Source: an uncultured bacterium
GTDB taxonomy: Bacteria > Patescibacteriota > Minisyncoccia > Phycocordibacterales > GWA1-40-21
Assembly: GCA_903831595.1 (NCBI GenBank)
Contig: CAIKXY010000002.1
Location: forward strand, 28,339 to 92,338
Direction: 5' to 3'
Length of the DNA: 64,000 bases
Shown: one piece after another, positions 7,431 to 63,124 of the stretch
Layout of the letters: each line of letters opens with the position of its first letter
Position numbering within the stretch: position 1 is the stretch's first letter
Notes under the pieces: model-generated
Told to the model about the DNA's origin: nothing
What the model saw: the letters and a program-made list of their open reading frames with translations, nothing else
Database searches by the model: none
Translations under genes and position numbers: made by a program

Positions 7431-8186
7431 ATGAATAATGAAATAACTAAGGCATTACTAGATATTGGATTGTCCAAAGAAGAGGTAAATATTTACCTAG
7501 CTGGGCTTGAGCTTGGAGAAAGTTCTGTGCAAAATATAGCTAAGAAAGCTGATATAAAAAGACCAACGGCGTATCTTATTATTGATGATCTGATTAAAAA
7601 AGGTCTTTTTTATCAAACATTTAAAGGTAAAAAAAGATATTTTAGTGCACAAAGCCCAAAAGATTTGGAAATTGAGCTAAAAAGAAAAGCATTTGAGCTT
7701 ACAAAGGTAATGCCGGAGCTTAATTCTATTTATAATACTTTAGGATTCAAACCAAGAGTAAGATTTTATGAAGGAGTTGCAGGCGCTATGTCTGTATATA
7801 ATGATACGATTGATTCTACACCAGAAAATGGTGAAATTTTAGATTTTGCAGGAATTAAAAATCTTTTTGACACTTTTCCAAAAGAATTTGCAATAGAATA
7901 CTACACCAAACGAATTCGAAAGAATATTATTGATAAGGTAATTGCAGTTGATTGTGAAGAAAGTAGGGAATGGAAAAAAAATGCAGAAGAAGAGATGAGA
8001 GAAATATTTATTGTTCCCGAAGATCAGTTTAATTTCTCTGGGGATATGGAGATATATGGAGATAAGGTGGCTTTGATATCATATAAAGAAAATTTTATGG
8101 CTGTCGTGATAGAAAGTAAGGAAATTGCAAATATGCAAAGGCTTATGTTTAATTTGATTTGGAATAATTTGAAGGGGCAGAAATAA
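7431..8186 (+). CDS. TrmB-family transcriptional regulator (paralog 1 of 3)
   Basis: N-terminal wHTH LLDIGLSKEEVNIYLAGLELGESSVQNIAKKADIKRPTAYLIIDDLIKKGL plus a TrmB-like C-terminal domain. It shares the same architecture with 14478..15227 and 16853..17626. Confidence 0.6.
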   Translation: MNNEITKALLDIGLSKEEVNIYLAGLELGESSVQNIAKKADIKRPTAYLIIDDLIKKGLFYQTFKGKKRYFSAQSPKDLEIELKRKAFELTKVMPELNSIYNTLGFKPRVRFYEGVAGAMSVYNDTIDSTPENGEILDFAGIKNLFDTFPKEFAIEYYTKRIRKNIIDKVIAVDCEESREWKKNAEEEMREIFIVPEDQFNFSGDMEIYGDKVALISYKENFMAVVIESKEIANMQRLMFNLIWNNLKGQK

Positions 8187-9695: not shown

Positions 9696-10559
9696 TTATT
9701 TTTTTAATTCACTTGCAATATATTTTTCAATTGCAATTGCAGTACTTGATGCCGCATATTCAATAAAACTATTTCTTGTGCTAGAGCTCAACATCATTGG
9801 TTCGTAAATATATGCATACTCAATGACAACTACGGGAACTTTTAAAGTGTCATAAACACCCGTTGCGATAAGTTCTTGATCTTCAATTATCAAATCTTTT
9901 TCTTGTAGCATATTGCTTGGTTTTTCTATTTTAGAAATTTCAGTATTTAAATAATTTGCAAATATTCTGCTTGATGAAGAGTTTGAATATTGATGTTCTG
10001 GAATATACATACAGTAACCGTGGAAAACTGGTTTGCCATTAATTTTTGGATTGCTGTTGAAGTGGACATGTAAAACTAAATCAATATTATTTTTTTCTAT
10101 CCATTTATTTGTTCCAAATAAATATAGAACAGCATTTGTTGCCGCATTATTATGTTTCATGTTTGGGTCTATCAATTCTATTTCTCCAGAATCAACTTTT
10201 CCGATCATTTTATTTTTCATCGCAGATGCCCATTCCATTATTGTGGTAGAACTTGTTTCAACATAATTTTTTAAATCAGGATTCCAACCGTTGTTGTCTC
10301 TCGCTATAATTATTTCAAGATTTGGATTGGCAGAAAGTATATCCTGTAAATCATTTGAAAGCTGAAGATTTAAATCTCTTTCTTTTATTGTTTTGAATTC
10401 ATCAGCACCACCAGCTTTTGGCTCATGACCTGCGACAATAAGTATTTTTGTTTTTTTATTTTGGAAAAACTTTTTGTTTGGTTCTTTAAATAAGGAAAAA
10501 ATGATAGCCAGAAGTATTAATGTTAAAAGTATTATTTTTATTGCAAGGTTTTTTTTCAC
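9696..10559 (-). CDS. N-acetylmuramoyl-L-alanine amidase (Amidase_3 family) with an N-terminal membrane anchor
   Basis: ILIVAGHEPKAGGA...ERDLNLQLSNDL...LVLHVHFNS, typical of Amidase_3 (AmiC/CwlD-like). N-terminal TM/signal segment. Confidence 0.6.
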   Translation of the reverse strand: MKKNLAIKIILLTLILLAIIFSLFKEPNKKFFQNKKTKILIVAGHEPKAGGADEFKTIKERDLNLQLSNDLQDILSANPNLEIIIARDNNGWNPDLKNYVETSSTTIMEWASAMKNKMIGKVDSGEIELIDPNMKHNNAATNAVLYLFGTNKWIEKNNIDLVLHVHFNSNPKINGKPVFHGYCMYIPEHQYSNSSSSRIFANYLNTEISKIEKPSNMLQEKDLIIEDQELIATGVYDTLKVPVVVIEYAYIYEPMMLSSSTRNSFIEYAASSTAIAIEKYIASELKK

Positions 10560-10599
10560 TATTATATTCTATGTTATTAAATGGATAAGTTCAATCAAT

Positions 10600-12318
10600 A
10601 TGATAAAATATATACATATGAAAAACATCAACAACAATTTTGAATCTAATAAAGAACAGCCAAAAGAAATTGAGAAGAAATTCCTAATAGAATCTTCACC
10701 TGAAAATCTAAATACTTTTCCTCATAAGGAAATCATTCAGGGATATATTGCTATTACCGAAGATGGGACTGAGGTTCGTTTAAGGAAGAAAAAAGATAAA
10801 TATTATCAAACTGTAAAATCTGGGTCAGGAAAAATAAGAACAGAAAATGAGGTAGAAATAACGAAAGAGCAGTTTGATGTTTTATGGGGTGCAACAGTTG
10901 GTAAAAGAATTAATAAAACACGATATGAAATCCCAGATAAAGCAGGTGTAATTGAGCTTGATATATACCATGAAGATTTAAATGGGCTTAAGACTGCTGA
11001 GATTGAATTTAATTCTGAAGAGGCGAGTTTGGATTTTGTCCCCCCAGTTTGGTTTGGAAAAGAAGTTACAGAAAATAAGGCGTATAAAAATCAAAATCTT
11101 GCTCGAAATGGGATTCCCCAAGAATCAATCAAAGCAATTCCAGAATATGAATTGAATATTGGTGTTGAAAAACTTATTCAAGAAGTAGAACAAAAAGTAT
11201 TAGAAAATAAGAATGGAACAATCATTGTTGAAATAGCGGGCGGTTCAGCTTCTGGAAAAACAAGCGCAGTTTCAAAAAAATTAATGGAGGCGTTCAACGA
11301 CGAAGCAGTTTTGATATCGATGGACGACTACTACTACGGGCAAACTTTTATGGATCACAAAAAAAATGAAGGCAATGAATTAAACTGGGATCAGCCGGAA
11401 GCTTTAAATATACCAGAACTTAGAAAAAATCTTGAAGATTTGAAACAAGGAAAAACAATTCAAAAACCAAAATATGATTTTAAAACGGGTGAACCAATTG
11501 GATCTGAAGAAATAATGCCAAGAAAGGTAATTGTAATTGAGGGACTATTTGCGTTAAATGATGAAATTAAAACCGAAGGCGATGTAAAAGTATTTGTTGA
11601 TATTGGTACACACGGAAGAATTATAAGAAGACTTCTTCGTGATGTTGTCACAAGAGGAAAAAAACCTGAAGATATAATTAGTTATTTTTCTGGAGTTGTT
11701 GAACCAATGCATGAAAAATATATTCAAAATACAAAACAAAATGCAGACATGGTAATAAAAAATGAATACAAACCTGAAGTTGAGGCTGAACGATCTGGTC
11801 TACATGAGATCCAGTTAAAATTTAAAGCAGATATAGATTTAGAAAACCTGAGAAAACTTGGGGTAGATAAATTGGGACAGACAACTCAAATTGATCACTA
11901 TTATAATCCTAAAGATAGAAATTTAACTGACACAGATGAAATATTGAGAATTAGAGAAGAAGGAAGTGCGACTATTTTAACTTATAAAGGACCTCGAATT
12001 AAGTCACAGTATCGAGATAGGCCAAAATTTGAATTCAATATTGATAGTGAAACTAAAACAAAATTTTTATCTATTTATGGCAATGAGTCAAAAAGTATAA
12101 AAAAAGAAAGAATACTATACCAATTGGATAGCATAGTATTTTCAGTAGATAAAGTCAGTAAGCTTGAAGGAGATATTGAAAAGATAATTGGCACGTATGT
12201 CGAAGTCCGTTCTACGGACAAATCTATTGATGAGAAAAAATTGAATGAGACGTTATCAAAACTTGGTTTAAATATCAAAGATGGAATAAAAGAAACATAT
12301 TTTGAACTTGCAGAATAA
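10600..12318 (+). CDS. CYTH - uridine kinase (PRK family) - CYTH tri-domain protein
   Basis: N-terminal EIEKKFLIES...YEIPDKAGVIELDIYHEDLNGLKTAEIEF, a CYTH/triphosphate-tunnel fold. Middle domain IVEIAGGSASGKTS...VLISMDDYYYG...NWDQPEALNIPELRKNLEDLKQGKTIQKPKYDF, a uridine kinase P-loop with its motifs. The C-terminal EIQLKFKAD...YYNPKDRNLTDTDEILRIREEG...ILTYKG is a second CYTH. The start could be 10600 or 10618. Confidence 0.6.
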   Translation: MIKYIHMKNINNNFESNKEQPKEIEKKFLIESSPENLNTFPHKEIIQGYIAITEDGTEVRLRKKKDKYYQTVKSGSGKIRTENEVEITKEQFDVLWGATVGKRINKTRYEIPDKAGVIELDIYHEDLNGLKTAEIEFNSEEASLDFVPPVWFGKEVTENKAYKNQNLARNGIPQESIKAIPEYELNIGVEKLIQEVEQKVLENKNGTIIVEIAGGSASGKTSAVSKKLMEAFNDEAVLISMDDYYYGQTFMDHKKNEGNELNWDQPEALNIPELRKNLEDLKQGKTIQKPKYDFKTGEPIGSEEIMPRKVIVIEGLFALNDEIKTEGDVKVFVDIGTHGRIIRRLLRDVVTRGKKPEDIISYFSGVVEPMHEKYIQNTKQNADMVIKNEYKPEVEAERSGLHEIQLKFKADIDLENLRKLGVDKLGQTTQIDHYYNPKDRNLTDTDEILRIREEGSATILTYKGPRIKSQYRDRPKFEFNIDSETKTKFLSIYGNESKSIKKERILYQLDSIVFSVDKVSKLEGDIEKIIGTYVEVRSTDKSIDEKKLNETLSKLGLNIKDGIKETYFELAE

Positions 12319-12341: not shown

Positions 12342-13274
12342 ATGCCCGAACTACCAGAAGCACAGACAACTGCGGATATATTAAACAGCAAGATAAAAGG
12401 CCTGCGGATTTTAGACGTGTGGACGGATTATGACTCTGTCTTTAATCGCGGCAAAAACAATGTAAAAGACAAAAATTATTTTCCATATTTTAAAAAAGAG
12501 GTATCAAATAAAACTATTTTGAGCGTTACAAGAAGGGCAAAAAACGTGTTAATCAATGTTTCACACAACCCTAATGTTGGTACACGGGCAGGCAAAACTA
12601 TTTTGGTACATATGAAGATGACAGGGCATTTACTATACGGAAAATATAAATTTGAAAACGGAAAATGGCTTCCCCCAAAAGATAGCTCACTTTCTGATCC
12701 GTACAACCGTTTCATCCACCTTGCGTTTAATTTATCTAATAAAAATACTTTGGTCCTATCTGACGCGAGAAAATTTGCAAAAGTTTTTGTCTTTGATACA
12801 GACAAAATAAATAAAATTTCTGACCTTGAAAAACTTGGACCGGAACCACTTGAAAAAAGTTTTACATACAAAGTATTTAAAGAAAAATTATATGAAAAAA
12901 CAAATGGTAAAATAAAAACAGTGATTATGGACCAGACAATTATTGCCGGTATTGGAAATATTTATTCTGACGAAACTCTTTGGTATAGCTGTATTCATCC
13001 GACAACAAAAGTGCAAGATATCAGTGAGGACAAATTAAAATTGCTTTATAAAAATATTATTAAGATTTTGAAAGAGTCTATAAAAGTTGGTGGAGATTCT
13101 ATGTCGGATTATAGAAATCCGTACGGTGAAAAAGGCGGTTATCAAGACCTTCATAAAGTTTACAGAAGAATTGGGGAAAAATGTAAAATGAAAAATTGTA
13201 ACGGTATAGTCCGTAGAATAAAAGTTGGTGGAAGGAGCGCACATTTTTGTGATGTGCACCAAAAGAGTATTTAG
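12342..13274 (+). CDS. mutM: Formamidopyrimidine-DNA glycosylase
   Basis: N-terminal MPELPEAQTT with catalytic Pro2, helix-two-turn-helix, and a C-terminal zinc finger CKMKNCNGIVRRIKVGGRSAHFCDVHQ. Confidence 0.8.
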   Translation: MPELPEAQTTADILNSKIKGLRILDVWTDYDSVFNRGKNNVKDKNYFPYFKKEVSNKTILSVTRRAKNVLINVSHNPNVGTRAGKTILVHMKMTGHLLYGKYKFENGKWLPPKDSSLSDPYNRFIHLAFNLSNKNTLVLSDARKFAKVFVFDTDKINKISDLEKLGPEPLEKSFTYKVFKEKLYEKTNGKIKTVIMDQTIIAGIGNIYSDETLWYSCIHPTTKVQDISEDKLKLLYKNIIKILKESIKVGGDSMSDYRNPYGEKGGYQDLHKVYRRIGEKCKMKNCNGIVRRIKVGGRSAHFCDVHQKSI

Positions 13275-13292: not shown

Positions 13293-13327
13293 AAAAAAGG
13301 CGGGGCGTTTACGCCACGCCTTTTTAA
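13293..13327. terminator. Bidirectional terminator between mutM and ruvA
   Basis: Stem GGCGGGGCG, loop TTTA, stem CGCCACGCC, flanked by A-runs and T-runs. Confidence 0.5.
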
Positions 13328-14452: not shown

Positions 14453-14480
14453 GAAAAAACACCCATATGGGTGTTTTTTA
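14453..14480. terminator. Bidirectional terminator. It overlaps the stop codon of the minus-strand TrmB gene.
   Basis: AAAAAAC-ACCC-ATAT-GGGT-GTTTTTT. Confidence 0.5.
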
Positions 14481-15227
14481 CTCTTCTTTTATAGCATCCC
14501 ACATGATATTAAAATATTGTTTATGCATATCAACAATATTTTTGTTTTCAATGATTATTGAGATATACGGTTCAATCAATTGTGTGATATAAATCTTTGT
14601 TGGAATGATCGCGACATTTGCTTTTAAATCTAAATTTGATTCAAACATCTTTACTTTAAAATTATAGTTCTGTTCGTTTTTCTTATAAAATGCCCCCACA
14701 TCATTGTTTTGTAGTATTGTCCTAACTCTTATATTCAATTTTGCTCTTTTTTCAATGAATTTTGTAAAAAATTCCCTATCAATGTTTAAAAACTTTTTTA
14801 AATCAGAAGTAATTAAATATTCATCATTTGGTTTTAAGGAATTATATATATCTTCATATATGGTTTTAACCCCCTCAATCCCTTCATAATACTTAATCAA
14901 GCTCTCACCACCTTTTAGATTATATAAAGCAGAAAGCTCAGGAATCATACTATTAAGCCTATCTTTTTTCTGTTCAATTATTTTTTCGAGCTTATCTGGG
15001 CTTTCAGCAACAAAAAGGTTTTTTAAACCTTTTAATTCAATATTCATAATCCCTTTTCTTTTTAAACTTTCAATAACAGGATAAACAGTGGTGCGTTTTA
15101 CACCTGAATGTTTTGCTATTTTATTTACAGTAGATGGACCCAACATAATAGAGGAAAGGTAAACTAGTGCCTCATGTTCTGAGAGACCAAAATCTATAAG
15201 TATTTCTTTAATATCTTCTTTTTGCAT
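14478..15227 (-). CDS. TrmB-family transcriptional regulator (paralog 2)
   Basis: wHTH LIDFGLSEHEALVYLSSIMLGPSTVNKIAKHSGVKRTTVYPVIESLKRKG, and the same length and domain order as 7431..8186. Confidence 0.6.
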   Translation of the reverse strand: MQKEDIKEILIDFGLSEHEALVYLSSIMLGPSTVNKIAKHSGVKRTTVYPVIESLKRKGIMNIELKGLKNLFVAESPDKLEKIIEQKKDRLNSMIPELSALYNLKGGESLIKYYEGIEGVKTIYEDIYNSLKPNDEYLITSDLKKFLNIDREFFTKFIEKRAKLNIRVRTILQNNDVGAFYKKNEQNYNFKVKMFESNLDLKANVAIIPTKIYITQLIEPYISIIIENKNIVDMHKQYFNIMWDAIKEE

Positions 15228-15404: not shown

Positions 15405-16151
15405 ATGAAAAAATTACTTGTAGCTCTAACAGCGTTAGTTGTACTCGTTGGGGTCTCATCCGCGGATGGATGGGTTCCTAGCGGCAGTGTAACAACTGCC
15501 GTAAGCAGCAAGTTGCTTGTCCCAGTATTGGGATGGGTAAAGTACGAGAAGGCAGCATGTTTTACTGCCGACGTCACACTTAACTTGCCGGAAGGATTTA
15601 TTCTGGAAGTTACGGAATATGGCGGGGTTGATTTTAACCTCGACAGTGACGGCGCGGATGAATTGGACTTTATTCTTTGGAAAAAGTTCAATTTGTCTCA
15701 AGACTCTTATTTAAAATTAAGAGTTAAGTATGCCAATGGCTTCCCTTTATCGTTGATGAACGGGAATGACATGTGGTCATACGACCTATTTTTAGGTCAG
15801 ACTGTTAAAGTTAACAGTCAGATAAGTATGGTGGCAGAAATGCGTTTAGAGTATTGCCACTATGTTCGTAGTCTGGCTGAAGGTGTCTGGGTAGTAATGC
15901 CCAGCATCTCAGCTTCATATACAATTGATCCTACGTTTTCCATTTATGGAAAGGTGGGGGGATTGTATAACAGCAAGTTTCTTAGTTTTGGGGAACTTGT
16001 ATCGGGTCAGGCAAGTCTTGGTGTAAAAACCAAGGTTATGAAAAACCTGACCCTGGTGGTGGATGCATCTGGACTGCTGCTCGACGTTAAGAGCGGCGAT
16101 CCTCGGAAGAGCGATGTGGTTTATACCACGTCGCTAACACTAAACTACTAA
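15405..16151 (+). CDS. Secreted hypothetical protein, beta-rich, with a C-terminal aromatic residue, encoded in a higher-GC island
   Basis: Signal peptide MKKLLVALTALVVLVGVSSA. Alternating hydrophobic pattern. It ends in ...TSLTLNY. Local GC looks about 45-48%, against roughly 30% background. Confidence 0.5.
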   Translation: MKKLLVALTALVVLVGVSSADGWVPSGSVTTAVSSKLLVPVLGWVKYEKAACFTADVTLNLPEGFILEVTEYGGVDFNLDSDGADELDFILWKKFNLSQDSYLKLRVKYANGFPLSLMNGNDMWSYDLFLGQTVKVNSQISMVAEMRLEYCHYVRSLAEGVWVVMPSISASYTIDPTFSIYGKVGGLYNSKFLSFGELVSGQASLGVKTKVMKNLTLVVDASGLLLDVKSGDPRKSDVVYTTSLTLNY

Positions 16152-22025: not shown

Positions 22026-25000
22026 ATGGAACAAGAATCTCAATTAGTTGATGCCGGTCTTAATGAGGAAATAAGCAAAGAAGCGATTAAAAGGCAAGAA
22101 GACGAAGCCAAATTTATTAGTGGTTATATAAAATCGACAGAAAATATTAATCAAGAAATTTCTAAATTAGAAATAACAATTAAAAGAATATTTGGTATTT
22201 TTTCTACTGAAATTAATAAAAATGACTATTTGCAATCGCTGCCTGATATAGAAAAAAGCCTAAAAGATTTACAATTGAATGGCAATAAAGATATTAATTA
22301 TTTTATCGAACAATCCCCAATAATATTATGTAGCCTTAAGAAACTAAAAGAATCAACTGAAATAAATTTAGAAGCTGACAATCAAACTAAAATAAATAAA
22401 GAAAAAATTAAAAAAATTGAAGAAGAGATTGCATCACTAAAAGAGTATAATTTTTTCAAAAAAATAGTAAGGTCAGCAGACTCAAAAATCAAAAAACTAG
22501 AATCTGATAAACAGCAGCTAGTTAGTATTAATAATGAAGCTTCAAGAATTAGTACAGAAAATGTTAAACTTAATAAAGAAATAGGCAAAACTTTGCTTGA
22601 AGTTGAAAAAACAATTTCAAATATCGCCCAAAATGAGATTACAGAAAAATTGGGCAAAGAAGTAAAAATGGCGATTAATAAGTCTTGGGAATTAATGCAA
22701 GACATAAATTCAAACGGTCTTAGCTTATCAATTGGTGAATCATATATAAAAAATATTGCCTTACCATCTATTAATGGTTCTGTGGACAAAAATCTTGAAA
22801 ATAAATTATTTACTGAGTATAAATTATATACAGAAAGCGGGTATGAGGAGTACACAAAACATAAAAATAATGTAATTGATCTAGCTGACGAATTAAAGAT
22901 AATAAGACCAAATGAGCTTTTTAATATTGACAACGATGCACTGGGGCTATTGTTTTCAATAGATGTCTCAGAAAAAATCTCTAATTTAAAAAATACATTT
23001 ATTAATCTACAACAAACATTAAGCAAAAGTAATGCTGTAAATAATAGTTTTATATTATCAGATAGAGACATAGAAAATAACTTTGGTCTAGAAATTCGTA
23101 CCTCAAGTCAATATAATCAAATTATTCTTGATATGGAGATGGAAAAACAACCACTCCTTAAAAAATTAGGCTATCATGAAATAAAAGATTGGCAGGCAGT
23201 AAAAAAATCCCAATTGGTTAATTCAATTTTTGGAGAAAAAGTTAAGCGTGTTGATGATGCAATATATAAATATCTAATTCCTCAAGTTACAACTAGTTTT
23301 GATGACTCTGCGTTAATATTTTCATTAAATTACTATAAAACACCAGAAGCTGTACGTGCAGCTTTATTATTGAGCATATCTAACAAGTATTATTGCTCGC
23401 GTGAAGCCAACTTTCTCATTAATAGTTTGTCAAAGGATAAAAAATGGTTAGAAGTTTTGGATAACACAGAAAAAAAATATCCATATTTAAAACCTTTACA
23501 TGAGATATTAGCCAAATGGAATGAGTCTGATTTTGATAGTAGCTCAATTTTTTCAAGAAATCCTAAAATTAATAATAATTTGCTACAAAATCTTGTTACT
23601 TCCATAGCTGAAAACGAGAATAATAAAAGTGAATTGGGTAAAAAAACAACAACGTTGGCCTTTAATTCTCTGGGAGCAGATCAAATGGTTCCGTTTTTAG
23701 AAAAAAACGATTTGATTTCAAAAGATGAAAAAGCAAAAATAGAAAGTCTTTTTGTATCATGGCCAGATAACCATAATTTGAAGATTAAATTAAAAGATTG
23801 TTTTTATGCAATGCTATGTAATAAATATGAGAATGAAGATACCAAAGATGAACATGAAAAAATGGATTTCTATTTAAAAATTTTTGATTCCTATAAGGAA
23901 AGTTTTTCTAAGTACAATAAATTTGATGAGGAAAAAATAATCACATCTTTTATTGATTTAGTAAATAAAAATAGATTAACAAAAGATAGGGTATTGGAAT
24001 TGGCTAATCCAATTAAAACGAAAAATGGTGTGGTAAATTTTATGAATCTTGAATCAAATGCAGGAGCTCTAGATGCACCTGAACTTTTTTTAGATAGTAA
24101 TGATGGTTTAGATATATTTACTCATTTAGAAAAAAAAGGAATCGATTCAATAGATCCAAGATTAGATGGTGTAATTGGAGACAAACTAATCCATAGTGAC
24201 ATAAAAGATTATTTAATAAAAGATACAATTAATTATGTTAATTCAAGATTTGTCAATAATAATTTAGATGGCAATTTAGAAATAACAAAAAATAATTGGA
24301 AATCATTATTACTAAATTATATTCAATCTAATAACTGGGATTTTAATTTGGCGACTGGGCCAGCAAAAGGATTACACGAAAAAATATATTATATTTTTTC
24401 TTTGGACGGCTCAAAAGATTTATGTCTTAATGAAATGAAAAAAACCTGGATTCAATACTTGAATAGTTCAGATAAAAATAAATTTCCCTTATCGTCAAGT
24501 ATTATTGCTCAATCTATTAAAAATAATGGTGGTGCTGGACCGCTTAGCCAAATTGCATCACTTGGTTTTTTCCAAGATAATTATTCACTGGTTATTGCCA
24601 GTGAGCAAATTACAGAAAAAACAAAGAATCAACTTTTTGATGGTATGAAAATGATGGAGGAGAAATTTATTAAAGAAAAATGGTCGAACGAGGACACCAC
24701 AAATTTCTATAATATATCCAGAGACATTTTATCTGTTGCACCGAGCTTATTCTCAACATACCTTGAGGTTTTTGTGAAGCTTAAACAAAAAGATACCAAG
24801 ACATTCTTGCAAGATATATTCCCATTACACAGGGCAGTACTTTCGCTTATAGAAAAAAAAGATGGAGATGGACACAGAACATTTGCTAAGAGGGGGTTGG
24901 CTGGGATAAGAAAAAATTTTGTAAGATCAATTTTGGATGAGTCTGGATCTATTAAGCCATTCTCTGAACAAAAAAAAGAGCTCACTGATTTTATATTGGA

Positions 25001-26633
25001 AAATTTTAAAAATAAATTTGGAATAATTAAAGTTAAGGAAAATTTTACTCCAGAACACCTTCGTTCGACGAGTAATATTTCAATGTATTGGTCAAATTTT
25101 AATCGTAAGAGTGATACATATTTTGAAAAAGTAATGAGTGTTTATTTAGCCCTAATGATTAATGATAAGTGGGATGATTATAAAAAAGGAGAAAAAATAA
25201 ATTTTGAAGAATTATTGACTCAAGAAAGAGCATCTTTTGCTAATAATCTAAGTAAGGATAAATTAGAAATGAATCCAATTATACAGCAAAATTTAGGTAT
25301 AAATGAAAAGGATTTGCCAGAGTTTTATAATATTTTAAGTTCAGAAGTGGGAAATATAGTAATTGGAAACGTTGAAACAATAGATAACAAGCTAAATAAT
25401 GTTATTTTAAATTTAGATAGTCTTAAAGATTTGGATTTATATCCACCAGATTCATTAGATAGGCAAAGAATGAAAATACTATTGGATTATGGAAGCAAAA
25501 AAATTGGTGAAGTAGTTGCAAAAACTTATCAATCACTAATAAAGACGAAAGGGGACATCAAATTCTCGGCGGACGAACAAAGTATCAAAAATGAAATAGA
25601 ATCTATATTAAAGATTAACAATTTAGAAATAAACACAGCAAATATTAAGAAAGTATTTCAAGAAGAGATGAGACCATTTTCTACTGTCATTAATATGTTT
25701 AGTTTTGTGGAAGAGATTGGAGTTAAAAACGACATATCAGAACTCAGAGAATTATTGAAACCTTCATCAGAAATAATCTCTATTTTTAATAAATTAGGTG
25801 AAGAATTTAAACAGACATCTGGTGCTATGGCCCTATCCCAGGATTTGGGATATTTGGAAAGTGTAATTAGTAAAAATGAAGATAAAATATCTAGTGAAGA
25901 AAATTCGTCAGTAAAAAAATACTTAGATGAGATAAATAAAAAATTAACAAAACTTGAAGATAACTATAAAAAGATTATTGATAAATTTAAAAATGTAAAG
26001 CAAGGGCATGGAGTTGTCGAAAACAAGTCATTAAAAGATAGACTTAATAATATAGACAAAATTATTAACTTGCCAGATGATCAGGTTGTAGTAACGAGCG
26101 GCATAACGTCAAATTTAAATTATATTATAGAAAATATAAGAAATTGTTTATCTTGTGTGACTAATGGTGTTAATAATGATACCAATTTGACCTTTGGCGA
26201 TCAAAACAAGTTTTATTTGTATAGCAAAACCAATCAAGGGCCAAAATCAATCTCAGATCAAATTTTGTTTCTTGAGCCAGTAAAATATGATGGTGTATCT
26301 GAAATGTCTTTTGTTTTTGATAAAGTATATGGTACAAAAACCCCAACGATTTTATTGAACCAAATTGAAGTTGTAATAAAAAAATATAAAGAAATTAAAA
26401 AGAAATTTCCGGATTCAAGACTTTCTTTATTCGTTACTAATGCAGCCTTAGAATCTTCTGGTTTATCTGTCGAATCTCTTAAGCGCGATCTACCAAATAT
26501 GAAGTGTGGGACAAAAACTATTAATATAAACGTTTTAAAATCCCCAGTGGCTGATCACTATATTGAAATTGGTAGCGGAAGTAGTAGGTCATCTGGTGGT
26601 GAGATGGTTGTTAACGGAGTGTTATTAAAATAG
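22026..26633 (+). CDS. Giant hypothetical protein (1535 aa), coiled-coil-rich and Lys/Asn-rich, with no signal peptide
   Basis: Uninterrupted ORF. The N-terminal 250 aa have strong heptad-like patterns. No recognisable catalytic motifs. It is flanked by a duplicated recJ 3' end; see findings. Confidence 0.55.
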   Translation: MEQESQLVDAGLNEEISKEAIKRQEDEAKFISGYIKSTENINQEISKLEITIKRIFGIFSTEINKNDYLQSLPDIEKSLKDLQLNGNKDINYFIEQSPIILCSLKKLKESTEINLEADNQTKINKEKIKKIEEEIASLKEYNFFKKIVRSADSKIKKLESDKQQLVSINNEASRISTENVKLNKEIGKTLLEVEKTISNIAQNEITEKLGKEVKMAINKSWELMQDINSNGLSLSIGESYIKNIALPSINGSVDKNLENKLFTEYKLYTESGYEEYTKHKNNVIDLADELKIIRPNELFNIDNDALGLLFSIDVSEKISNLKNTFINLQQTLSKSNAVNNSFILSDRDIENNFGLEIRTSSQYNQIILDMEMEKQPLLKKLGYHEIKDWQAVKKSQLVNSIFGEKVKRVDDAIYKYLIPQVTTSFDDSALIFSLNYYKTPEAVRAALLLSISNKYYCSREANFLINSLSKDKKWLEVLDNTEKKYPYLKPLHEILAKWNESDFDSSSIFSRNPKINNNLLQNLVTSIAENENNKSELGKKTTTLAFNSLGADQMVPFLEKNDLISKDEKAKIESLFVSWPDNHNLKIKLKDCFYAMLCNKYENEDTKDEHEKMDFYLKIFDSYKESFSKYNKFDEEKIITSFIDLVNKNRLTKDRVLELANPIKTKNGVVNFMNLESNAGALDAPELFLDSNDGLDIFTHLEKKGIDSIDPRLDGVIGDKLIHSDIKDYLIKDTINYVNSRFVNNNLDGNLEITKNNWKSLLLNYIQSNNWDFNLATGPAKGLHEKIYYIFSLDGSKDLCLNEMKKTWIQYLNSSDKNKFPLSSSIIAQSIKNNGGAGPLSQIASLGFFQDNYSLVIASEQITEKTKNQLFDGMKMMEEKFIKEKWSNEDTTNFYNISRDILSVAPSLFSTYLEVFVKLKQKDTKTFLQDIFPLHRAVLSLIEKKDGDGHRTFAKRGLAGIRKNFVRSILDESGSIKPFSEQKKELTDFILENFKNKFGIIKVKENFTPEHLRSTSNISMYWSNFNRKSDTYFEKVMSVYLALMINDKWDDYKKGEKINFEELLTQERASFANNLSKDKLEMNPIIQQNLGINEKDLPEFYNILSSEVGNIVIGNVETIDNKLNNVILNLDSLKDLDLYPPDSLDRQRMKILLDYGSKKIGEVVAKTYQSLIKTKGDIKFSADEQSIKNEIESILKINNLEINTANIKKVFQEEMRPFSTVINMFSFVEEIGVKNDISELRELLKPSSEIISIFNKLGEEFKQTSGAMALSQDLGYLESVISKNEDKISSEENSSVKKYLDEINKKLTKLEDNYKKIIDKFKNVKQGHGVVENKSLKDRLNNIDKIINLPDDQVVVTSGITSNLNYIIENIRNCLSCVTNGVNNDTNLTFGDQNKFYLYSKTNQGPKSISDQILFLEPVKYDGVSEMSFVFDKVYGTKTPTILLNQIEVVIKKYKEIKKKFPDSRLSLFVTNAALESSGLSVESLKRDLPNMKCGTKTININVLKSPVADHYIEIGSGSSRSSGGEMVVNGVLLK

Positions 26634-27552: not shown

Positions 27553-30500
27553 ATGAATTTAAGAAACATCAAAATAAATCTATCGAATATCTTTAGAAAA
27601 AATATTGGAGAAAGAGTAAAAGTGTGGATAAAAAATCCAATATTCTCCGTTGTAATTGTGGCACTACTTTTTTTTGTAATGGCCGCAGTTTTTATTTTAC
27701 CCAGTTATTCTATTCATAAAGATAATGTAATTAAAAATCTTTCCATTACCCAACTCCCATCTACTCCTGGCCAACCAATAAAATGGATAAAGAAAATTGC
27801 TGTAAATCAAATTAATGAAGACACACATTTGGTGGAGATTCCAAAAATTGCAACAAAAGTTTCAATTTCTACTTCAACAATAAAAAATATCTCCCCAGTA
27901 AAAACCTCTAAACTTACAAACGCAGATAGAAAGAAGCTTTCAGCATTAGCTGCACAAAGAGTAAATTCTACTTCCACACTTCAACTTGCAGAAAAAATAA
28001 AACAACAAAAAATTGAATCAACTAAAAAATTAACTTTTTTTCAAAAAATATTCCGTGCCATTAGAAATTCAATTTCAAATATGTTTGCTACCGTTGAGGA
28101 CGCAGTGGCACCTGCACCTGAGACAACCATTATAGATGTTGCTCCAGTAGTTTCTCTGACACAAGATCAAACACAAACACCAGTATCAACAGATAATTCT
28201 TCAACTCCAATAGCAGATAATTCATCCACAACAACTTCTCCTGATAATTCTATACCAGTACAATCTACATCAACAGATAGCTCTCAATCCACATCCACAG
28301 CTCCCGCTACTCCAGAGATTTCAACAACAAGCGCATCAACAACACAAGATCAATCAGTTTCAACATCATCCACATCAGCTTCAGCACAAAGTACTTCCGC
28401 ATCTACTACATCAACAAGTTCTGACCAATCAATAGCCACTTCTACTGGAACATCCACAGCACTTGTAAATGCATCATCCACAGCATCAACGACGGTAGAT
28501 GTTATATACGAAACTCCAGCACCAACTATCACCGAAGCAAATACTGACACTGGAAAAATTGTCACCATTTCTGCTACGGATACTTCTGACACACCAATAA
28601 CAAACGTCTTAGCTTATGCAAACATCCCAAAAATATATAAAGTAGGCCAAGAAGATAAGATAAAAATAAAATGGGTGAACAACGGCGACCAAAATGTTGT
28701 TTTTAAGGCATATGACTTAAACAAAGATGGATGGCTCGACTACGTAGAATGGACAGTTCCACACCTTTCAACACAAACATTTGAAATTATTTTCATATCA
28801 AAAGCTTTCCAGCTTGATACAGACCAAAGTATTCTCGCAGATATTTATGATTCAGTAAAAACAAAAGATGGGAACTACGCGACAATCAGCGACGGACAAT
28901 ATGTCAGAACAACTTTCAATCAAATTTTGACCAAAGGAAATGACATCACTATTTATGCAAAGCCAACAAACACAAGTGGCTCGGCAAGTATTGAAGTTTA
29001 TCCCGTCTATGTTGACGCAGAAGGTAATCAAACAGAAGGAGACAAGCTTACACTAGTAAATGATGATGTTAATTCAAATTTCGATAATATCAATCACACT
29101 GGCAAATACAGAATTTTGCTAAAAAATCTCGTCACCCCAACAAACATTTTTGACCTAAAAGTCACTGGAAACATAGATATAGATTATATTGTTGACCCTG
29201 TCCCGACACCTTTTATCTCAACATGGGATACAAGAAATACTTCCTCTGGTTCAAGTGCAGACAATCAAATACATATTCCTCTCATAGATCCAGGCCGATT
29301 TGGTAATAATAATACTGATACACAATATGGTTTTACAGTTGATTGGGGAGATGGGAACACCGATACTATTACATCATTCGATGACCCAAATACCACACAC
29401 ACATATTCAACAGCTGGTGTTTATACACTTACGATAACTGGTACGCTTGTCGGTTGGAGTTTTGCGCTGGCCCCTATAAATGATAGTAAAAAAATTATTG
29501 AAATAAGTCAGTGGGGTTCTCTAGTTTTGCTTAATACACTCAATGACAATGATTTTATAAATGGTTGGGCTTCTTATTATTACATAGGCTATTTTGCAGG
29601 GACATCAAATTTAAGCATTACTGCAACTGATACACTCAATACTGCTAGTACAACAGAAATGATGAGCGCTTTTGATGGAAGTGGTATTAGCACTGTTCCC
29701 TCTATGAATAGTTGGGATATGTCAAATGTTAGAAGTATGAACAGTATGTTTGCAAATACTCCAAATTTTAATCAACCTATTGGAAATTGGAAAACCTCAA
29801 ATGTATGGATAATGAAAGATATGTTTGCAAATGCCACGGCGTTTAATCAACCAATTGGGAATTGGGATGTAGGTTCACTTCAAATGGATTCATGCCAAGG
29901 AATGTTTAGAAATGCAACATCTTTTAATCAACCACTAAATGGTTGGCATTTTAGGGCGCCCAATGATTTTAGGTGGATGTTTTCTGGTGCGACTTCATTT
30001 GACCAAAATATTAGTACATTTGATTTTACTAATTTGGGCGGGATTTATTTAGCAGGTATGTTTGATGGAGTTACGCTTTCTACAACAACTTATGATGCCA
30101 TATTGATGGGATGGGGAAATCCAGAACATAACGCAGGTAATTGGCCAACGGGAGTCACTTTTTCCGCTGGCAGTTCCACTTACGACTATTCTGCATCTTT
30201 AGCAAGACAACATCTTGTAAATACTTTGGGTTGGACAATTACTGACGGTGGTCCATCTTGGCCTGCATCAGACGCAACATTACTTATTGCAGCTACAACT
30301 ACAGCTCAGGGTCTAATAGATGCAAATGCACCAGAGTCGACGGATATTCCAGGCAATCATTTACCAGGTTCTCTCGCTACACTTCAAACTGCGCTTGGTG
30401 CAGTATATGCGGATATTAGCTATCCACAAAGCGTCGTCGATGAACAAACTCTTGCACTAAATACTGCCATTGATACTTACAATACATCCCTTGTTTTACC

Positions 30501-33500
30501 ATCAAATGTTGATGCACTAAACAGTGCGAGAAATGACGCTTCTACAATTCTTCTTAATTACTGTAATGATGATTATCGACCTGGTTGTTATCCTGGTTGG
30601 CTTTTTTCTACTCTCAACGGTGTCGTAGAACAATATTCCGCTGTAGATAATACTTACACCCAAGGTGCTGTTGACTGGGCGGCTGGTGCTATACGAGGTG
30701 CAATTGATACTTTTTCTTGGTCACAAATACAACCATCTTATACTGGAAATCTTGAAGGTGCTAGATCACGGGCCCAGGGTACCCTAAATAATTGTAGTAG
30801 TTATGATCAACCAACCTGTTATCCCCCAAGCTCTTTTGAAAGCCTTAGTAGTACTCTGAATTCTTACTCTAGTGTTGATAGCAATTCGCCGCAAGGAGAT
30901 GTTGATAGTGCAACCAATGTAATAAATGATGCATGTAATTCTTTTGATGCCACACAAATACCGCTATCTTACACTGGAAATCTTGACTCTAATCGTCAGT
31001 GGGCTCAATGGATGTGTTGGGACGGCTGTGGTAGTTCCGGACAACATTATTGTTCAGACCGTGATGCTATATGTAGTGCTGCGGGTTCATATTGGGCAGG
31101 TCCCTATGACCCACAAGGTTATGTTGAGAGTATGGCACAACAGATTCAGGCTGCCATAGACACTTATAATTCCTCTCCTTTAATTCCCTACGCTGATACG
31201 TCTGGACTCGATTTTGCTAAAAGTCAAGCTCAAGATTTAATAAATCAAAATGCTCCAGAATCGAGTACACCCGGTGACCATATAGTTGGCTCACTTCAGA
31301 TACTTTCCGGCATTTTATGGTCAAATTATTGGCCTGATATTAACTATCAAAGCAGTGTTGACGCAGCAACAGCGGCAATTAATGATGCGATATCAGCTTA
31401 TTATGCAGCAATCGTGCCATCATCAGATGTTACTGACCTGAACTTTGCTATAAGTGTGGCTCAAACTTTTATTACAGAAAACGCACCAGAGTCTTACACC
31501 CTAGGTAATCATATGCCCGGCTCACTCAGTGCACTTTCTTTGGTCCTTGCATCTGCTACCTCAACGGTAAATGATCCTCAATCTGTTGTCTACACACAAA
31601 CATCTGACTTAAATAATGCTATTAAAATATACAACGCATCTGTAATCAGTGCGTTTATGCCAGATGCATCAAGCGATATAGAATTATCACAGCAGGCTGT
31701 AATTTCAAACAGCATAACAAATCTTTCTGGTATCCTTACACAAAATCAAAGTGTCCATAATCTTATTTTAGGTACGGGTGGATATTTGGATTTGGCTGGT
31801 CACACGTTGACTATATCGGGTACATACACAAATAATGGTGGAACACTTACTGATAGTGTTGGTGGAGGAGCAATGAACATTTCAGGTGCGCATTGGTGGG
31901 AGTATTCAAACGCATCAGAAGTAATAAATGGTGCGACAATAAATTATTTGCCAAATAGCGATGATGTAAACAGCGATGTTTCAATAGGTAGTGATGTTAA
32001 TACAAAGTTATTATTGCATATGGATGGTACAAATGGTTCAAATAATTTTGTTGATAGCGAATTAACCCCTAAAACTGTTACCGCAAATGGCAGTGCACAA
32101 ATAAGTACGACGCTATCAAAATTTGGGGCAAGCGGACAATTTAATGGTTCAACGGATTATTTAACTATTCCGGCAAGTAATGATTTTAATTTTGGAACCG
32201 GAGATTTTACTATTGACGGATGGTTCTATTTTAATAGTCTTGGTACACAAATAATAGCAAGTGATTACAATGCAAATAATGAATGGGGAGATGCTGGTTG
32301 GGCAATGTTTATTGAGTGGGGGCAATTCTCTTTTCTTTCAGCCTCCAGTCATGGGTGGGATAATTGGTCCGTTTATCATTCATCTTTTGTTCCACAAATT
32401 CACACGTGGACACATCTAGCAGTTGTAAGGCATGGAAATGTCTTTACTCTTTATGCAAATGGGCAAAGTGTTATGTCCGGGACATATAATGATGGAACTG
32501 GCAATTATTCTGGGCAACTGGTAATTGGAGCAAGATCCAATGGGAGTGCTTCATTTGATGGTTATATGGATGAATTAAGAATTTCAAAAGGGGTTGCCCG
32601 TTGGACAGATAATTTTACACCATCTAGCTCACCATATGGTTCTGATACAAAAAATATTTCTCTATTTAGAGATTCATATATCAGGAATATTGCCATAAAT
32701 GCAGGCAGTACATTAAATTTGGCTGGTCACTCATTAACTATTTCAGGTACATATACAAATTCTGGAGGAACTCTTACTGATAGTGTTGGTGGTGGTTCAA
32801 TTGATTATGCAGGACCATGGTGGATGCCTATTAATGTTGGCGGAAGTGGTATCACTGTAAATTATTCGGCAAATAGTAGTGAAGTCATCAGTGATTTAGT
32901 TCTAAGTACAAGCACCAGGCTTTATAGAGATGCATATATTCATAATCTTACTTTAGCGACCGGTGGAACTTTAGATTTGAATGGTCACACACTAAATATT
33001 TCTGGACATTGGTGGAATTTTAATAACACAGGTGGAACATTAATTAAAAATGGTGGAACAATAAATTATATATCCAAAATTCCTTATCCTTTAGATACTG
33101 TAAGCGATGCAACAATTGATACATCGATTACTCTTGATAGAGACCAAAGTGTAAACAATCTCACCCTTGCAAGCGGTGGAACTTTAGATTTAAATGGTCA
33201 TACATTAAACGTTTCAGGTAATTGGACAAATTCAGGCGGAACACTTATAAACCATGGTGGCACAGTTAATCTTACTGGAACAAACCAAAGTATTTTGGGT
33301 ACAAACACATTTGCAAATTTAGTTAAACAAACACCTGTTAGTGATTCATTATATTTTGATGGAACTGCATCAACCACTATTACTGACAGTATATCTTTAA
33401 ACGGAAGTTTGGGGAATTTGTTAACAATAAAACCAATAAGTGGAATTAGCAACGGCCTAATCTTGTCCCTCCCTTTTAATTCTCCAAATCCGACAGTCGA

Positions 33501-62749: not shown

Positions 62750-63124
62750 TTGTTACATTATAACTTTTATATTTTTTCTTGGGAAGGCCTAAAACAATAA
62801 TGACTGAATATAGTTAATTGGTCTAGTGGCATTGTTGGTAACTTTGCTTCGCAAACTCTCTAATCTAAGCTAGGGTATGGAGTAATACCTAATTTTTTGG
62901 TATTATGTTATTTACAATTAAATAAAAGACGACCTAACCCCTTTAGAAATAGAGGATATGGTTGCAAAACCCGCTAGAGAACAAAGGACTCCTCGTCAGA
63001 GTCACTCTAGCGGGTCATATTGGGAAACTGATATGGGTGAGGCTGAAAGGTTTCATCGCGATGGCGGGGAGCTCTTTGTTTATATAAAGACTCACCTCTA
63101 TCGATTAAAACCCGCTAGAGTTTT

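Follow-up and report, generated by a model that had tools for sequence, protein, structure and literature searches.

A putative nucleoside kinase flanked by two unlike triphosphate tunnel domains in a member of the Patescibacteria

The closest described counterparts of the protein analysed here are TTM1 and TTM2 of Arabidopsis (PDB 7z66/7z67), in which an extra N-terminal helix, a UCK-like kinase, a short helical linker and a CYTH tunnel follow one another. The tunnel of AtTTM1 has no catalytic competence; it lies against the kinase and pushes aside the hairpin that binds the nucleoside, yet UMP is still made (PMC9582702). The kcat on uridine is about 0.1 per min, the position that reads the base is occupied by a serine, and the protein has an unexplained hydrophobic pocket (PMC9582702). 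No metal density is seen in the AtTTM1 tunnel. AtTTM1 and AtTTM2 nonetheless have a weak pyrophosphatase activity in vitro, and in the plant the two proteins affect senescence, immunity and flowering. Fusions of a kinase to a CYTH domain have been described, in two published structural papers, as exclusive to plants (Viridiplantae) and Amoebozoa.

Several tunnel proteins that act without a kinase partner are also relevant. NeuTTM and CthTTM have been shown experimentally to be PPPases without cyclase activity, and Tyr28 and Lys52 form the catalytic dyad (PMC3440374). SaTTM (Saci_0718, 7ns8), a triphosphatase that works with two metals, has complete ExExK and ExE motifs. The first glutamate of ExE serves metal site 1, and both glutamates of ExExK together with the second glutamate of ExE form site 2, which activates the nucleophilic water (Martinez 2015, PMC4641920); the same assignment of the metal sites is given by Vogt 2021 (PMC8233210). 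The class IV cyclases are set apart by an HFxxxxExExK motif, by a small residue in place of the first Arg of xRxR and by the change of ExE to ExA (Vogt 2021, PMC8233210).

The window, a stretch of 64,000 nucleotides from an uncultured member of the Patescibacteria, contains a gene in which these two kinds of protein appear to be joined. The gene lies in a single open reading frame (10474-12318, forward strand) with two plausible starts, ATG 10600 and ATG 10618. The second start matches a 100% identical database protein of 566 amino acids and is the one used in the Table. Residues 1-11 are predicted to be disordered. All motifs quoted in an earlier note on this DNA are found where expected in the reading frame, including EIEKK at 10666-10680 and ILRIREEG.

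Table. Coordinates of the gene, its domains and motifs, and the downstream gene
Feature	Position	Strand	Basis or remark
Whole gene	10618..12318	+	566 codons + stop; alternative start ATG 10600
N-terminal TTM/CYTH domain, NeuTTM/CthTTM type, residues 16-163	10663..11106	+	PDB sequence and fold matches
Linker with the extra helix (residues 179-196) that opens the kinase module	11107..11217	+	Secondary structure of the model
Udk/UCK-type P-loop kinase, residues 201-385	11218..11772	+	Pfam, profile and alignment
P-loop AGGSASGKT	11236-11262	+	Kinase domain
D236-D-Y-Y	11323-11334	+	Kinase domain
Short helical linker, residues 386-395	11773..11802	+	After junction motif N382-E-Y384-x-P386
C-terminal CYTH, SaTTM/CyaB-like, degenerate metal site 2, residues 396-566	11803..12315	+	Pfam, profile, model
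E397-x-Q399-x-K401 (EIQLK; ExQxK for ExExK)	11806-11820	+	C-terminal tunnel
E529-x-R531 (ExR for ExE)	12202-12210	+	C-terminal tunnel
mutM/fpg	12342-13274	+	23 nt downstream of the three-domain gene, same strand

The succession of a tunnel, a kinase (from about residue 200) and a second tunnel had been proposed from the sequence in the earlier note, and it stands. Pfam recognizes the kinase (PRK, PF00485, residues 209-388, E 3e-34) and the C-terminal tunnel (CYTH, PF01928, residues 402-567, E 5e-22; both numbered from ATG 10600). A Pfam scan of the N-terminal 200 amino acids alone gave no CYTH match, so that of the two CYTH domains only the second is called by this method. The miss can be dismissed as evidence against the first one, as the searches of PDB sequences and folds are unambiguous: the domain matches the NeuTTM structures 2fbl and 3typ with an E value of 1e-32 and an identity of 41-43%, and the corresponding part of the AlphaFold model superimposes on them with a TM score of 0.75-0.78 (Foldseek E about 1e-14). 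Both CYTH domains are therefore real. They have no detectable similarity to each other and belong to different subfamilies, one NeuTTM-like and the other SaTTM-like, which rules out a tandem duplication of one CYTH domain. The AF2 model is confident for each domain (pLDDT 86.6) and contains two complete eight-stranded barrels, the N-terminal one spanning residues 16-131 with a pLDDT of around 90. The plug helix is the last element of the protein. How the domains are placed relative to one another is uncertain (pTM 0.62). Superposed as a whole on the AtTTM1 crystal structure, the model fits poorly (TM 0.33/0.46, rmsd 15.7 Å).

The architecture had been considered unusual for a bacterium. This is true relative to the characterised proteins, but the protein belongs to a large conserved family of very small symbionts, the Patescibacteria, with members on DPANN archaeal contigs. 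More than 120 full-length homologues are present in the databases. At 50% identity, the Patescibacteria account for about 65 clusters of the three-domain form and about 60 of a two-domain, kinase-CYTH form, and the three-domain form is found also on genuine DPANN archaeal contigs, the family being concentrated in the CPR. A literature search on CPR or Saccharibacteria combined with uridine kinase or CYTH gave nothing relevant. Since the two structural papers restrict kinase-CYTH fusions to plants and Amoebozoa, the prokaryotic family looks undescribed so far.

The two-domain forms, which lack the N-terminal tunnel, are about as common as the three-domain ones. They start just before the helix formed by residues 179-196 of the window protein, aligning from about residue 170-180. 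At four loci (L018, L024, L025 and L026) they are not products of split genes, as no coding sequence for an N-terminal tunnel was found there within 4 kb, and at L018 the two-domain form is encoded by a clean reading frame of 409 amino acids. In a rough neighbor-joining tree of the kinase-tunnel module the two forms are interspersed, with 34 switches between them, a tree too crude to separate repeated gain or loss of the N-terminal tunnel from poor resolution. Because the two-domain versions are so common, the N-terminal tunnel would be a facultative addition to a kinase-tunnel core.

Where the N-terminal tunnel is present, its active site is strongly conserved. The domain is similar to NeuTTM (NE1496) over its full length and has the same fold, and it keeps the ExExK motif, the Tyr28/Lys52 dyad, the RxR and KxR motifs and the C-terminal ExE. 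Among 117 homologues, the ExExK residues E17, E19 and K21 are conserved in 116, 117 and 115 proteins, respectively, and E128 and E130 of the last-strand ExE in 117 and 116. Residues Y43 and K67, which align with the NeuTTM dyad, are invariant, and the basic lining (R54, R56, K67, K100 and R102) is invariant or nearly so; the tunnel also carries D115. The catalytic and binding residues of NeuTTM are all invariant or nearly invariant both in these 117 homologues and in the roughly 65 three-domain representatives at 50% identity. The N-terminal tunnel is apparently catalytically complete and of the NeuTTM type. Unlike NeuTTM and CthTTM, which are stand-alone bacterial inorganic triphosphatases, it is fused to a kinase-tunnel module. 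It would most likely hydrolyse inorganic triphosphate, and possibly NTPs, to PPi (or NDP) and Pi.

The central domain is a kinase of the Udk/UCK type. Its Pfam PRK score (119) is far above the gathering score of 22, and a profile of the family kinase finds the Udk of T. thermophilus at 167 bits, AtTTM1 at 157 and UCK2 at 145; bacterial Udk is the top match, above PRK and pantothenate kinase. As in T. thermophilus Udk (3asy/3w8r) and human UCK2, the P-loop, the catalytic Asp, the ribose-binding Asp and the lid arginines are kept. Besides the motifs in the Table, N256-W-D258-Q-P, Y286, E308-G-L-F and R334/R337/R341-D342 can be recognized. The P-loop Lys and Thr, D236, D258, Y286, E308, R337, R341 and D342 are invariant in the family, and the P-loop and D236 align with the catalytic K78 and D98 of AtTTM1 and with Udk. 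The earlier description of a kinase core with a P-loop and a DDYYYG motif is borne out, and AGGSASGKT and the catalytic D236 are invariant.

The domain differs from Udk and UCK in lacking the C-terminal kinase helix and having the extra N-terminal one, which may take its place, in its two flanking tunnels, and in falling below the NCBIfam uridine-kinase equivalog cut-offs (NF004018, 162 against 180; TIGR00235, 152.6 against 220.3). It also lacks the His or Tyr that specifies the base. This position, which is His117 in UCK2 and Tyr93 in ttCK and belongs to the YDF hairpin, is G291 in the window protein; in the 117 homologues it is Ser 75 times, Gly 36 times, and Ala and Asn three times each. 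As the equivalog cut-offs are missed and the base-reading residue is absent, the true acceptor may be other than uridine or cytidine, and the Gly or Ser at this position possibly alters or broadens the base specificity. The same two observations, together with the slow turnover of uridine by AtTTM1 and its hydrophobic pocket, could be taken to mean that the PRK-fold domain is no nucleoside kinase at all and phosphorylates another small molecule, or uses or makes a polyphosphorylated metabolite handled by the tunnels, uridine being a poor surrogate here and perhaps also for TTM1/2. This is quite improbable, as DDYY, NWDxP with its ribose-binding Asp, the YDF hairpin and the RxxRRxxRD lid are as well conserved as in bona fide Udk, and bacterial Udk outscores PRK and pantothenate kinase. 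As a kinase of the Udk/UCK family, the domain would phosphorylate ribonucleosides of the uridine/cytidine type at the 5'-OH, with the gamma-phosphate coming from an NTP.

The kinase and the C-terminal tunnel together resemble plant TTM1/2, a likeness already pointed out in the earlier note. AtTTM1 (7z66) is the top Foldseek match of the window protein (7e-25), and the two sequences align collinearly over residues 193-537 (E 1e-26), including the junction motif N-x-[YF]-x-P, which is NKFNP in AtTTM1. In the model, the P-loop strand comes after the helix 179-196, and the linker is reached without a C-terminal kinase helix. Among the kinases matched by the profile, AtTTM1 is the only one to align through this helix, and the same extra helix has been described in its structure (Pesquera 2022, PMC9582702). 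Where UCK has its base-reading His, both proteins have a small residue, Ser in AtTTM1 and Gly in the window protein. In both, the metal site of the tunnel is degenerate, and the basic residues and the plug-helix Tyr are kept. A PRK-fold kinase followed by a CYTH domain without intact ExExK and ExE is the arrangement of the plant TTM1/2 type (SSN cluster 7, Vogt 2021), and the window protein has it.

The differences from TTM1/2 are nevertheless considerable. The window protein has an additional N-terminal tunnel of the NeuTTM type, catalytically intact as far as its residues indicate, and it has neither a coiled coil nor a transmembrane tail anchor. The degeneration of its C-terminal tunnel is partial, with one Glu replaced in each of the two motifs (ExQxK, ExR), whereas no Glu is left in the corresponding motifs of AtTTM1 (TYILK, QVQ). 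The aromatic residue of the plant W/YxRxR motif is Leu (L443). The family occurs in CPR bacteria and on DPANN archaeal contigs as opposed to Viridiplantae and Amoebozoa. The C-terminal tunnel and that of AtTTM1 are only remotely similar: a profile of the C-terminal tunnel finds AtTTM1 with an E value of 7e-4 as compared with 3.6e-22 for SaTTM.

The same profile finds PH1819 with an E value of 1.8e-21 and YpAC-IV with 1.7e-7. SaTTM and the archaeal CyaB-like proteins PH1819, PH1012 and PF0863 are the closest relatives of known structure (E 3.6e-22 to 7e-12) and share the DxY, RxR, YKGP and KxR motifs with the C-terminal tunnel. Unlike SaTTM with its full ExExK and ExE, the present family has ExQxK and ExR, and it carries an insertion of about eight residues before the last strand. 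NCBI gives the homologues the name class IV adenylate cyclase, and the C-terminal domain could accordingly be read as a CyaB-type adenylate or nucleotidyl cyclase, the signal of which is modulated or degraded by the kinase and the N-terminal tunnel. The name is explained by the TIGR00318 (cyaB) score of 60.5 bits, which passes the cut-off of 57.95 marginally, and YpAC-IV is a detectable relative. However, the position of the HF motif, four residues before the ExExK equivalent, is occupied by E391-R392 and the motif itself is E-x-Q-x-K, the first Arg of xRxR is kept (R444, invariant in the family) where cyclases have a small residue, and the last strand has ExR where cyclases have ExA. Judged by these residues, the label disagrees with all three published determinants. 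The triphosphatase SaTTM and the archaeal CYTH proteins moreover surpass YpAC-IV by about 15 orders of magnitude in the profile search, and a cyclase is very improbable.

The ExExK residues and metal-binding glutamates, which the earlier note had singled out for comparison, are intact in the N-terminal tunnel and altered in the C-terminal one. In the alignment of family representatives at 50% identity, Q399 is invariant and position 531 is never acidic and usually Arg, so that two of the three ligands of metal site 2 are replaced; the third, E397, is variable (E, D, Q, A, P, T, H and others). The site 1 Glu (E529) and the basic lining are kept. The tunnel retains D426-x-Y428, R444-x-R446, K457, K496-x-R498, D511 and the plug-helix Y561; E529, R444, R446, K457, K496 and R498 show little or no variation, and D426 and Y428 are conserved. 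With the replacements at positions 399 and 531, the protein has lost the canonical metal site 2, the catalytic one. Because the site 2 ligands are lost but the Glu for the substrate metal and the basic residues of the lining are kept, the C-terminal tunnel is most likely a ligand-binding or regulatory domain, as in Arabidopsis TTM1. Its ligand would be a tri- or diphosphate (NTP, PPPi or PPi) that is not hydrolysed through the canonical two-metal mechanism, and the tunnel would control the kinase allosterically or by gating, a role proposed for AtTTM1.

The strong purifying selection on this domain and the retention of E529, of the DxY motif, to which the placement of water has been assigned, and of all basic residues could also be explained if both tunnels were hydrolytic. 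The C-terminal tunnel would then be a one-metal pyrophosphatase or triphosphatase, and kinase turnover would be coupled to the removal of PPi or PPPi at two sites. That the even more degenerate tunnels of AtTTM1/2 keep a low pyrophosphatase activity agrees with this and counts against taking a non-catalytic C-terminal tunnel as certain. Two hydrolytic tunnels are nevertheless unlikely in view of the invariant Gln, the non-acidic residue in ExR and the lack of conservation of E397. Mutations of the equivalent glutamates in AtTTM3 and ygiF cut hydrolysis strongly (Martinez 2015, PMC4641920), and the AtTTM1 tunnel, devoid of metal density, was judged catalytically incompetent.

The surroundings of the gene contribute little. 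As reported in the earlier note, mutM/fpg follows directly on the same strand. The 23 nt that separate them contain no terminator-like site, and a bidirectional terminator lies after mutM (13302-13322); here, the two genes are probably co-transcribed. Inspection of 27 loci revealed nothing common in the neighbourhoods beyond close relatives and ubiquitous TrmB regulators, and no conserved neighbours that point to a pathway. The adjacency of mutM, not being conserved among these loci, is a peculiarity of this genome and tells nothing about function; a functional link is rejected and mutM is outside the system. Two small reading frames that precede the gene at loci L001 and L003 are not homologous and do not form a conserved pair. 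A role in anti-phage defence has no support, with zero PADLOC matches.

The analysis shows the domain identities, the conserved residues, the fold, the distribution and the lack of a conserved gene neighbourhood; we infer all activities of the protein, the regulatory role of its C-terminal tunnel and its link to salvage. The function is most likely that of a nucleoside-salvage kinase plus a triphosphatase. The best explanation, to which a probability of about 0.55 can be given, is an enzyme of nucleotide economy built of three modules, a nucleoside kinase, a C-terminal tunnel that gates it and an N-terminal triphosphatase. The host would be an ultra-small member of the Patescibacteria (CPR) that depends on salvage. 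The CPR and DPANN lineages are known to lack de novo nucleotide synthesis.

A more speculative extension, itself rather improbable, is that the CPR and DPANN proteins represent in prokaryotes the TTM1/2 module of plants and Amoebozoa, that they possibly gave rise to it, and that they work as ligand-gated nucleoside kinases. By sensing the pool of NTP, PPPi or PPi, the degenerate C-terminal tunnel would make the nucleoside pocket open or close, and the N-terminal triphosphatase would clear PPPi. Kinase and PPPase would in this way handle both products, nucleoside and PPPi, of reactions of the NTP/dNTP triphosphohydrolase type.

The setting would be cells living entirely on scavenged nucleic acids. 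In CPR and DPANN organisms, the three-domain protein may be a main route by which scavenged nucleosides reach the nucleotide pool. With no membrane anchor, a less degenerate tunnel and a frequent fusion to an intact triphosphatase, the prokaryotic family would offer a simpler, soluble system in which the ligand sensed by the tunnel and the gating of the kinase could be worked out. The comparison also flags a systematic mis-annotation of these proteins as class IV adenylate cyclase in public genomes.

Two CYTH (triphosphate tunnel, TTM) domains enclose a uridine kinase in the product of this gene, as the earlier note had proposed. Pfam recognises PRK/uridine kinase (E 3e-34) in the protein and CYTH at its C-terminal end (E 5e-22), but the Pfam CYTH model misses the N-terminal third when scanned alone. 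Along its full length, however, this third shares 41-43% identity with NeuTTM, an inorganic triphosphatase of Nitrosomonas (2fbl/3typ, E 1e-32). An AlphaFold2 model computed from 70 homologues (mean pLDDT 86.6, pTM 0.62) contains a Rossmann-like kinase between two complete eight-stranded barrels. Its Foldseek matches in the PDB are, in order, the kinase-tunnel tandem of Arabidopsis TTM1 (7z67, E 7e-25), NeuTTM (TM 0.75-0.78), UCK2 and T. thermophilus Udk (TM 0.72-0.78), and the archaeal triphosphatase SaTTM (TM 0.77). Because the Pfam matches, the identity to NeuTTM, the barrels of the model and the Foldseek matches agree, the sandwich is real. The domain scan envisaged as its check thus recovers the kinase and the C-terminal CYTH domain, and the N-terminal one emerges from the PDB and Foldseek comparisons; Pfam on its own could have "refuted" the sandwich wrongly.

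The mechanical ORF call begins at a TTG, and its first stretch, 10474-10599, runs into the 5' end of the amidase gene on the opposite strand. The true start is therefore probably ATG 10600, the one chosen previously, or ATG 10618, where an identical 566-aa protein from a public collection (P0001) begins. No clear Shine-Dalgarno sequence precedes either ATG. Residue numbers here count from ATG 10618. All motifs quoted in the earlier note are present in the sequence at the expected positions.

Coordinates of the tri-domain gene, its motifs and other features in the window and at homologue loci
Feature	Sequence	Coordinates	Strand	Remark
ORF of tri-domain gene	window	10474-12318	+	mechanical ORF call, from TTG 10474
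EIEKK	window	10666-10680	+	read in sequence
AGGSASGKT (P-loop)	window	11236-11262	+	read in sequence
DDYY	window	11323-11334	+	read in sequence
EIQLK	window	11806-11820	+	read in sequence
EVR	window	12202-12210	+	read in sequence
phrog_6660 match	window	10663-11106		N-tunnel
Amidase_3 gene	window	9696-10559	-	divergent
TrmB-family gene	window	7431-8186	+	
TrmB-family gene	window	14478-15227	-	
248-aa ORF	window	15405-16151	+	
Giant ORF, 1535 aa	window	22026-26633	+	
Giant ORF, 2663 aa	window	27553-35544	+	middle
Giant ORF, 1500 aa	window	36158-40660	+	
LOOT RNA (RF03000)	window	62931-63054	+	
TrmB-family gene	L004	6839-7597		directly downstream of homologue
TrmB-family gene	L014	1076-1819		directly downstream of homologue
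Tri-domain gene	L022	3902-5617		DPANN contig
ORF	L022	3069-3722		directly upstream of tri-domain gene
Tri-domain gene	L028	3959-5671		DPANN contig
In-frame TGA	L024	4505-4507		CP060226.1

No similarity between the two tunnels can be detected, and they differ in origin and state. By its sequence the N-terminal tunnel is of the NeuTTM/CthTTM type. In 117 full-length homologues it keeps E17, E19 and K21 of the ExExK motif, R54/R56, K100/R102, D115, E128/E130 of the metal-binding ExE, and Y43 and K67, which are equivalent to the catalytic dyad Tyr28/Lys52 of NeuTTM (PMC3440374). This residue set also holds in tri-domain representatives at 50% identity, so far as residues can tell equipping the tunnel with everything a working triphosphatase would need. 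The phage protein family phrog_6660, of unknown function, matches the N-tunnel at full length (E 2e-29), and phages too thus carry NeuTTM-like tunnels.

The C-terminal tunnel is conserved as strongly, in a different pattern. Its family profile matches SaTTM (3.6e-22) and the archaeal CyaB-like proteins PH1819, PH1012 and PF0863; the match to the true cyclase YpAC-IV is far weaker (1.7e-7) and that to AtTTM1 weaker still (7e-4). As to whether both tunnels keep their metal-binding glutamates, this one does so only in part: Q399 is invariant at the position of the second ExExK Glu, E397 at the first varies freely over the wider family, and most members have Arg, and none an acidic residue, in place of the second Glu of ExE on the last strand. 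The first Glu of ExE (E529), R444, R446, K457, K496, R498, D426-x-Y428, D511 and Y561 of the plug helix are invariant or nearly so. In TTM proteins, metal site 1 comprises the first Glu of ExE and the substrate, and both ExExK glutamates and the second ExE Glu make up site 2, where the attacking water is activated (Martinez 2015, PMC4641920; likewise Vogt 2021, PMC8233210). Mapped onto these sites, the conserved and lost residues indicate that site 1 and the phosphate-binding walls are kept and site 2 is dismantled. The straightforward reading is that the C-tunnel would bind a metal-(poly)phosphate ligand without hydrolysing it by the canonical route. The same conclusion was reached for the AtTTM1 tunnel, which was judged to pack against the kinase and probably to regulate it (Pesquera 2022, PMC9582702).

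Database names of the homologues are "class IV adenylate cyclase" or "uridine kinase". TIGR00318 scores the C-terminal domain marginally over its cut-off. True class IV cyclases have HFxxxxExExK, have lost the first Arg of xRxR and have ExA (Vogt 2021, PMC8233210); the C-terminal domain fails all three, and the cyclase name is thus not trustworthy.

The kinase domain keeps its catalytic residues, unlike the degenerate scaffold that the earlier note had allowed for: its P-loop AGGSASGKT and the DDYY Asp (the general base, aligned with D98 of AtTTM1) are invariant across the family. Also invariant are N-W-D-x-P, Y286 of the YDF hairpin, E308-G-L-F and the R337/R341-D342 lid. The family profile gives bacterial Udk 167 bits, AtTTM1 157 and UCK2 145, with phosphoribulokinase and pantothenate kinase well below. 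The pyrimidine-reading residue, His in the 3w8r variant of T. thermophilus Udk and Tyr in 3asy, is Gly in the window kinase and Ser or Gly across the family, likewise in AtTTM1. Because of this residue, and because the NCBIfam Udk equivalog cut-offs are not reached, the domain is called, from sequence, a Udk-type nucleoside kinase of uncertain base specificity.

The alignment with AtTTM1 is collinear over residues 193-537, from the pre-P-loop helix through kinase and junction to the tunnel. AtTTM1 alone, unlike Udk and UCK, aligns with the family profile in the extra N-terminal helix and the junction, and both share the junction motif N-x-[YF]-x-P. In the model, helix 179-196 precedes the first kinase strand and the C-terminal kinase helix is absent, an order of helices like that described for the plant family (Pesquera 2022, PMC9582702). 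Homologues composed of kinase and C-tunnel only (bi-domain) begin just ahead of this helix. The tunnels, however, are only remotely similar in sequence; W/Y in the plant W/YxRxR is Leu in the window protein, each metal motif retains one Glu, and the coiled-coil and membrane anchor are missing. Common ancestry of the plant and prokaryotic kinase-tunnel fusions is plausible but unproven.

A word-indexed protein search yields more than 120 full-length homologues (545-598 aa, 51-71% identity), those named being Parcubacteria, Komeilibacteria or "Patescibacteria group". An exhaustive search of 50%-identity representatives yields 368 proteins at E <= 1e-30; the best 150 of these include 65 tri-domain proteins with an intact N-tunnel signature, 60 bi-domain proteins with a degenerate tunnel (about 390-420 aa) and 10 of other architectures. 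By record labels, the tri-domain gene occurs in GTDB species representatives of Jacksonbacteria, Saccharibacteria, Falkowbacteria, Gracilibacteria, unclassified Patescibacteria, Parvarchaeota (L022) and Micrarchaeota (L028), and in MAGs bearing only the labels Gammaproteobacteria, Bacteroidales and Methanosarcinales. Neighbours at L022 and L028 are archaeal (S8e, L7Ae, the aEF-2 C-terminus, deoxyhypusine synthase and FtsZ among them, translations judged by eye). The DPANN occurrences are hence genuine, implying that CPR bacteria and DPANN archaea share the gene. At L022 the ORF directly upstream is, by eye, a dCTP deaminase candidate.

Saccharibacteria, Peribacteria and Omnitrophota contain bi-domain forms. 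These are not the product of gene splitting at L018, L024, L025 and L026, where the N-tunnel is not encoded anywhere within 4 kb. Tri- and bi-domain proteins intermingle in a rough NJ tree, too crude for counting events, so the N-terminal triphosphatase appears to be a facultative add-on. Architectures are more varied still, since residues 393-791 of a giant NCBI protein (P0254, 2845 aa, 321-kb contig) form a kinase and degenerate-tunnel module, and three proteins of about 630-660 aa (P0125, P0184, P0208) have a different or degenerate N-terminal domain replacing the NeuTTM-like tunnel. In the homologue at L024 (labelled Candidatus Peribacteria) an in-frame TGA falls exactly on the conserved Gly330 (VFVDL*THGR against VFVDIGTHGR), a coincidence better explained by recoding of UGA as Gly in that genome (genetic code 25) than by a pseudogene.

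The gene is flanked by the divergent Amidase_3 gene and by mutM; RuvA, S20 and TrmB regulators lie in the vicinity. The adjacency to mutM pointed out earlier stands, and the two are probably co-transcribed in the window; this adjacency is incidental, as other genomes have ATP synthase and metK, dnaA/dnaN, or HU and TrmB next to the gene. Neighbour clustering over 27 loci found no recurrent partner, so gene context gives no functional clue. TrmB-family genes, near the gene in 4 of the 27 loci, are the only neighbours recurring outside close relatives, and this probably just reflects abundant TrmB paralogues in CPR genomes. Elsewhere in the window are a full-length match to the orphan structured sRNA motif LOOT (73.5 bits, gathering score 46.4), three consecutive giant ORFs, the middle one coinciding with a rise in local G+C (0.37-0.41 versus about 0.32), and a 248-aa ORF whose N-terminus is signal-peptide-like and which lacks Pfam matches.

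The most likely mechanism is that the central Udk-type nucleoside kinase would serve salvage, gated by the non-hydrolytic C-terminal tunnel on binding tri- or diphosphate, with an active NeuTTM-type triphosphatase often fused at its N-terminus. The domain assignments are established, whereas the activities, the gating and the purpose of the fusion are inferred. Speculatively, the fusion might reflect that (d)NTP triphosphohydrolases release just two products, nucleoside and inorganic triphosphate. Plant TTMs have been called unique for their P-loop kinase, a "plant-unique TTM-kinase family" (Pesquera 2022, PMC9582702). Searches of the accessible literature that combined CPR or Saccharibacteria with CYTH or uridine kinase returned nothing on the tri- and bi-domain family; its sequences are public, but it appears uncharacterised and undescribed. 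The tri-domain protein is real, well conserved and uncharacterised; with its family, the range of the TTM1/2-type module comes to include prokaryotes, and a tractable model for that module becomes available.
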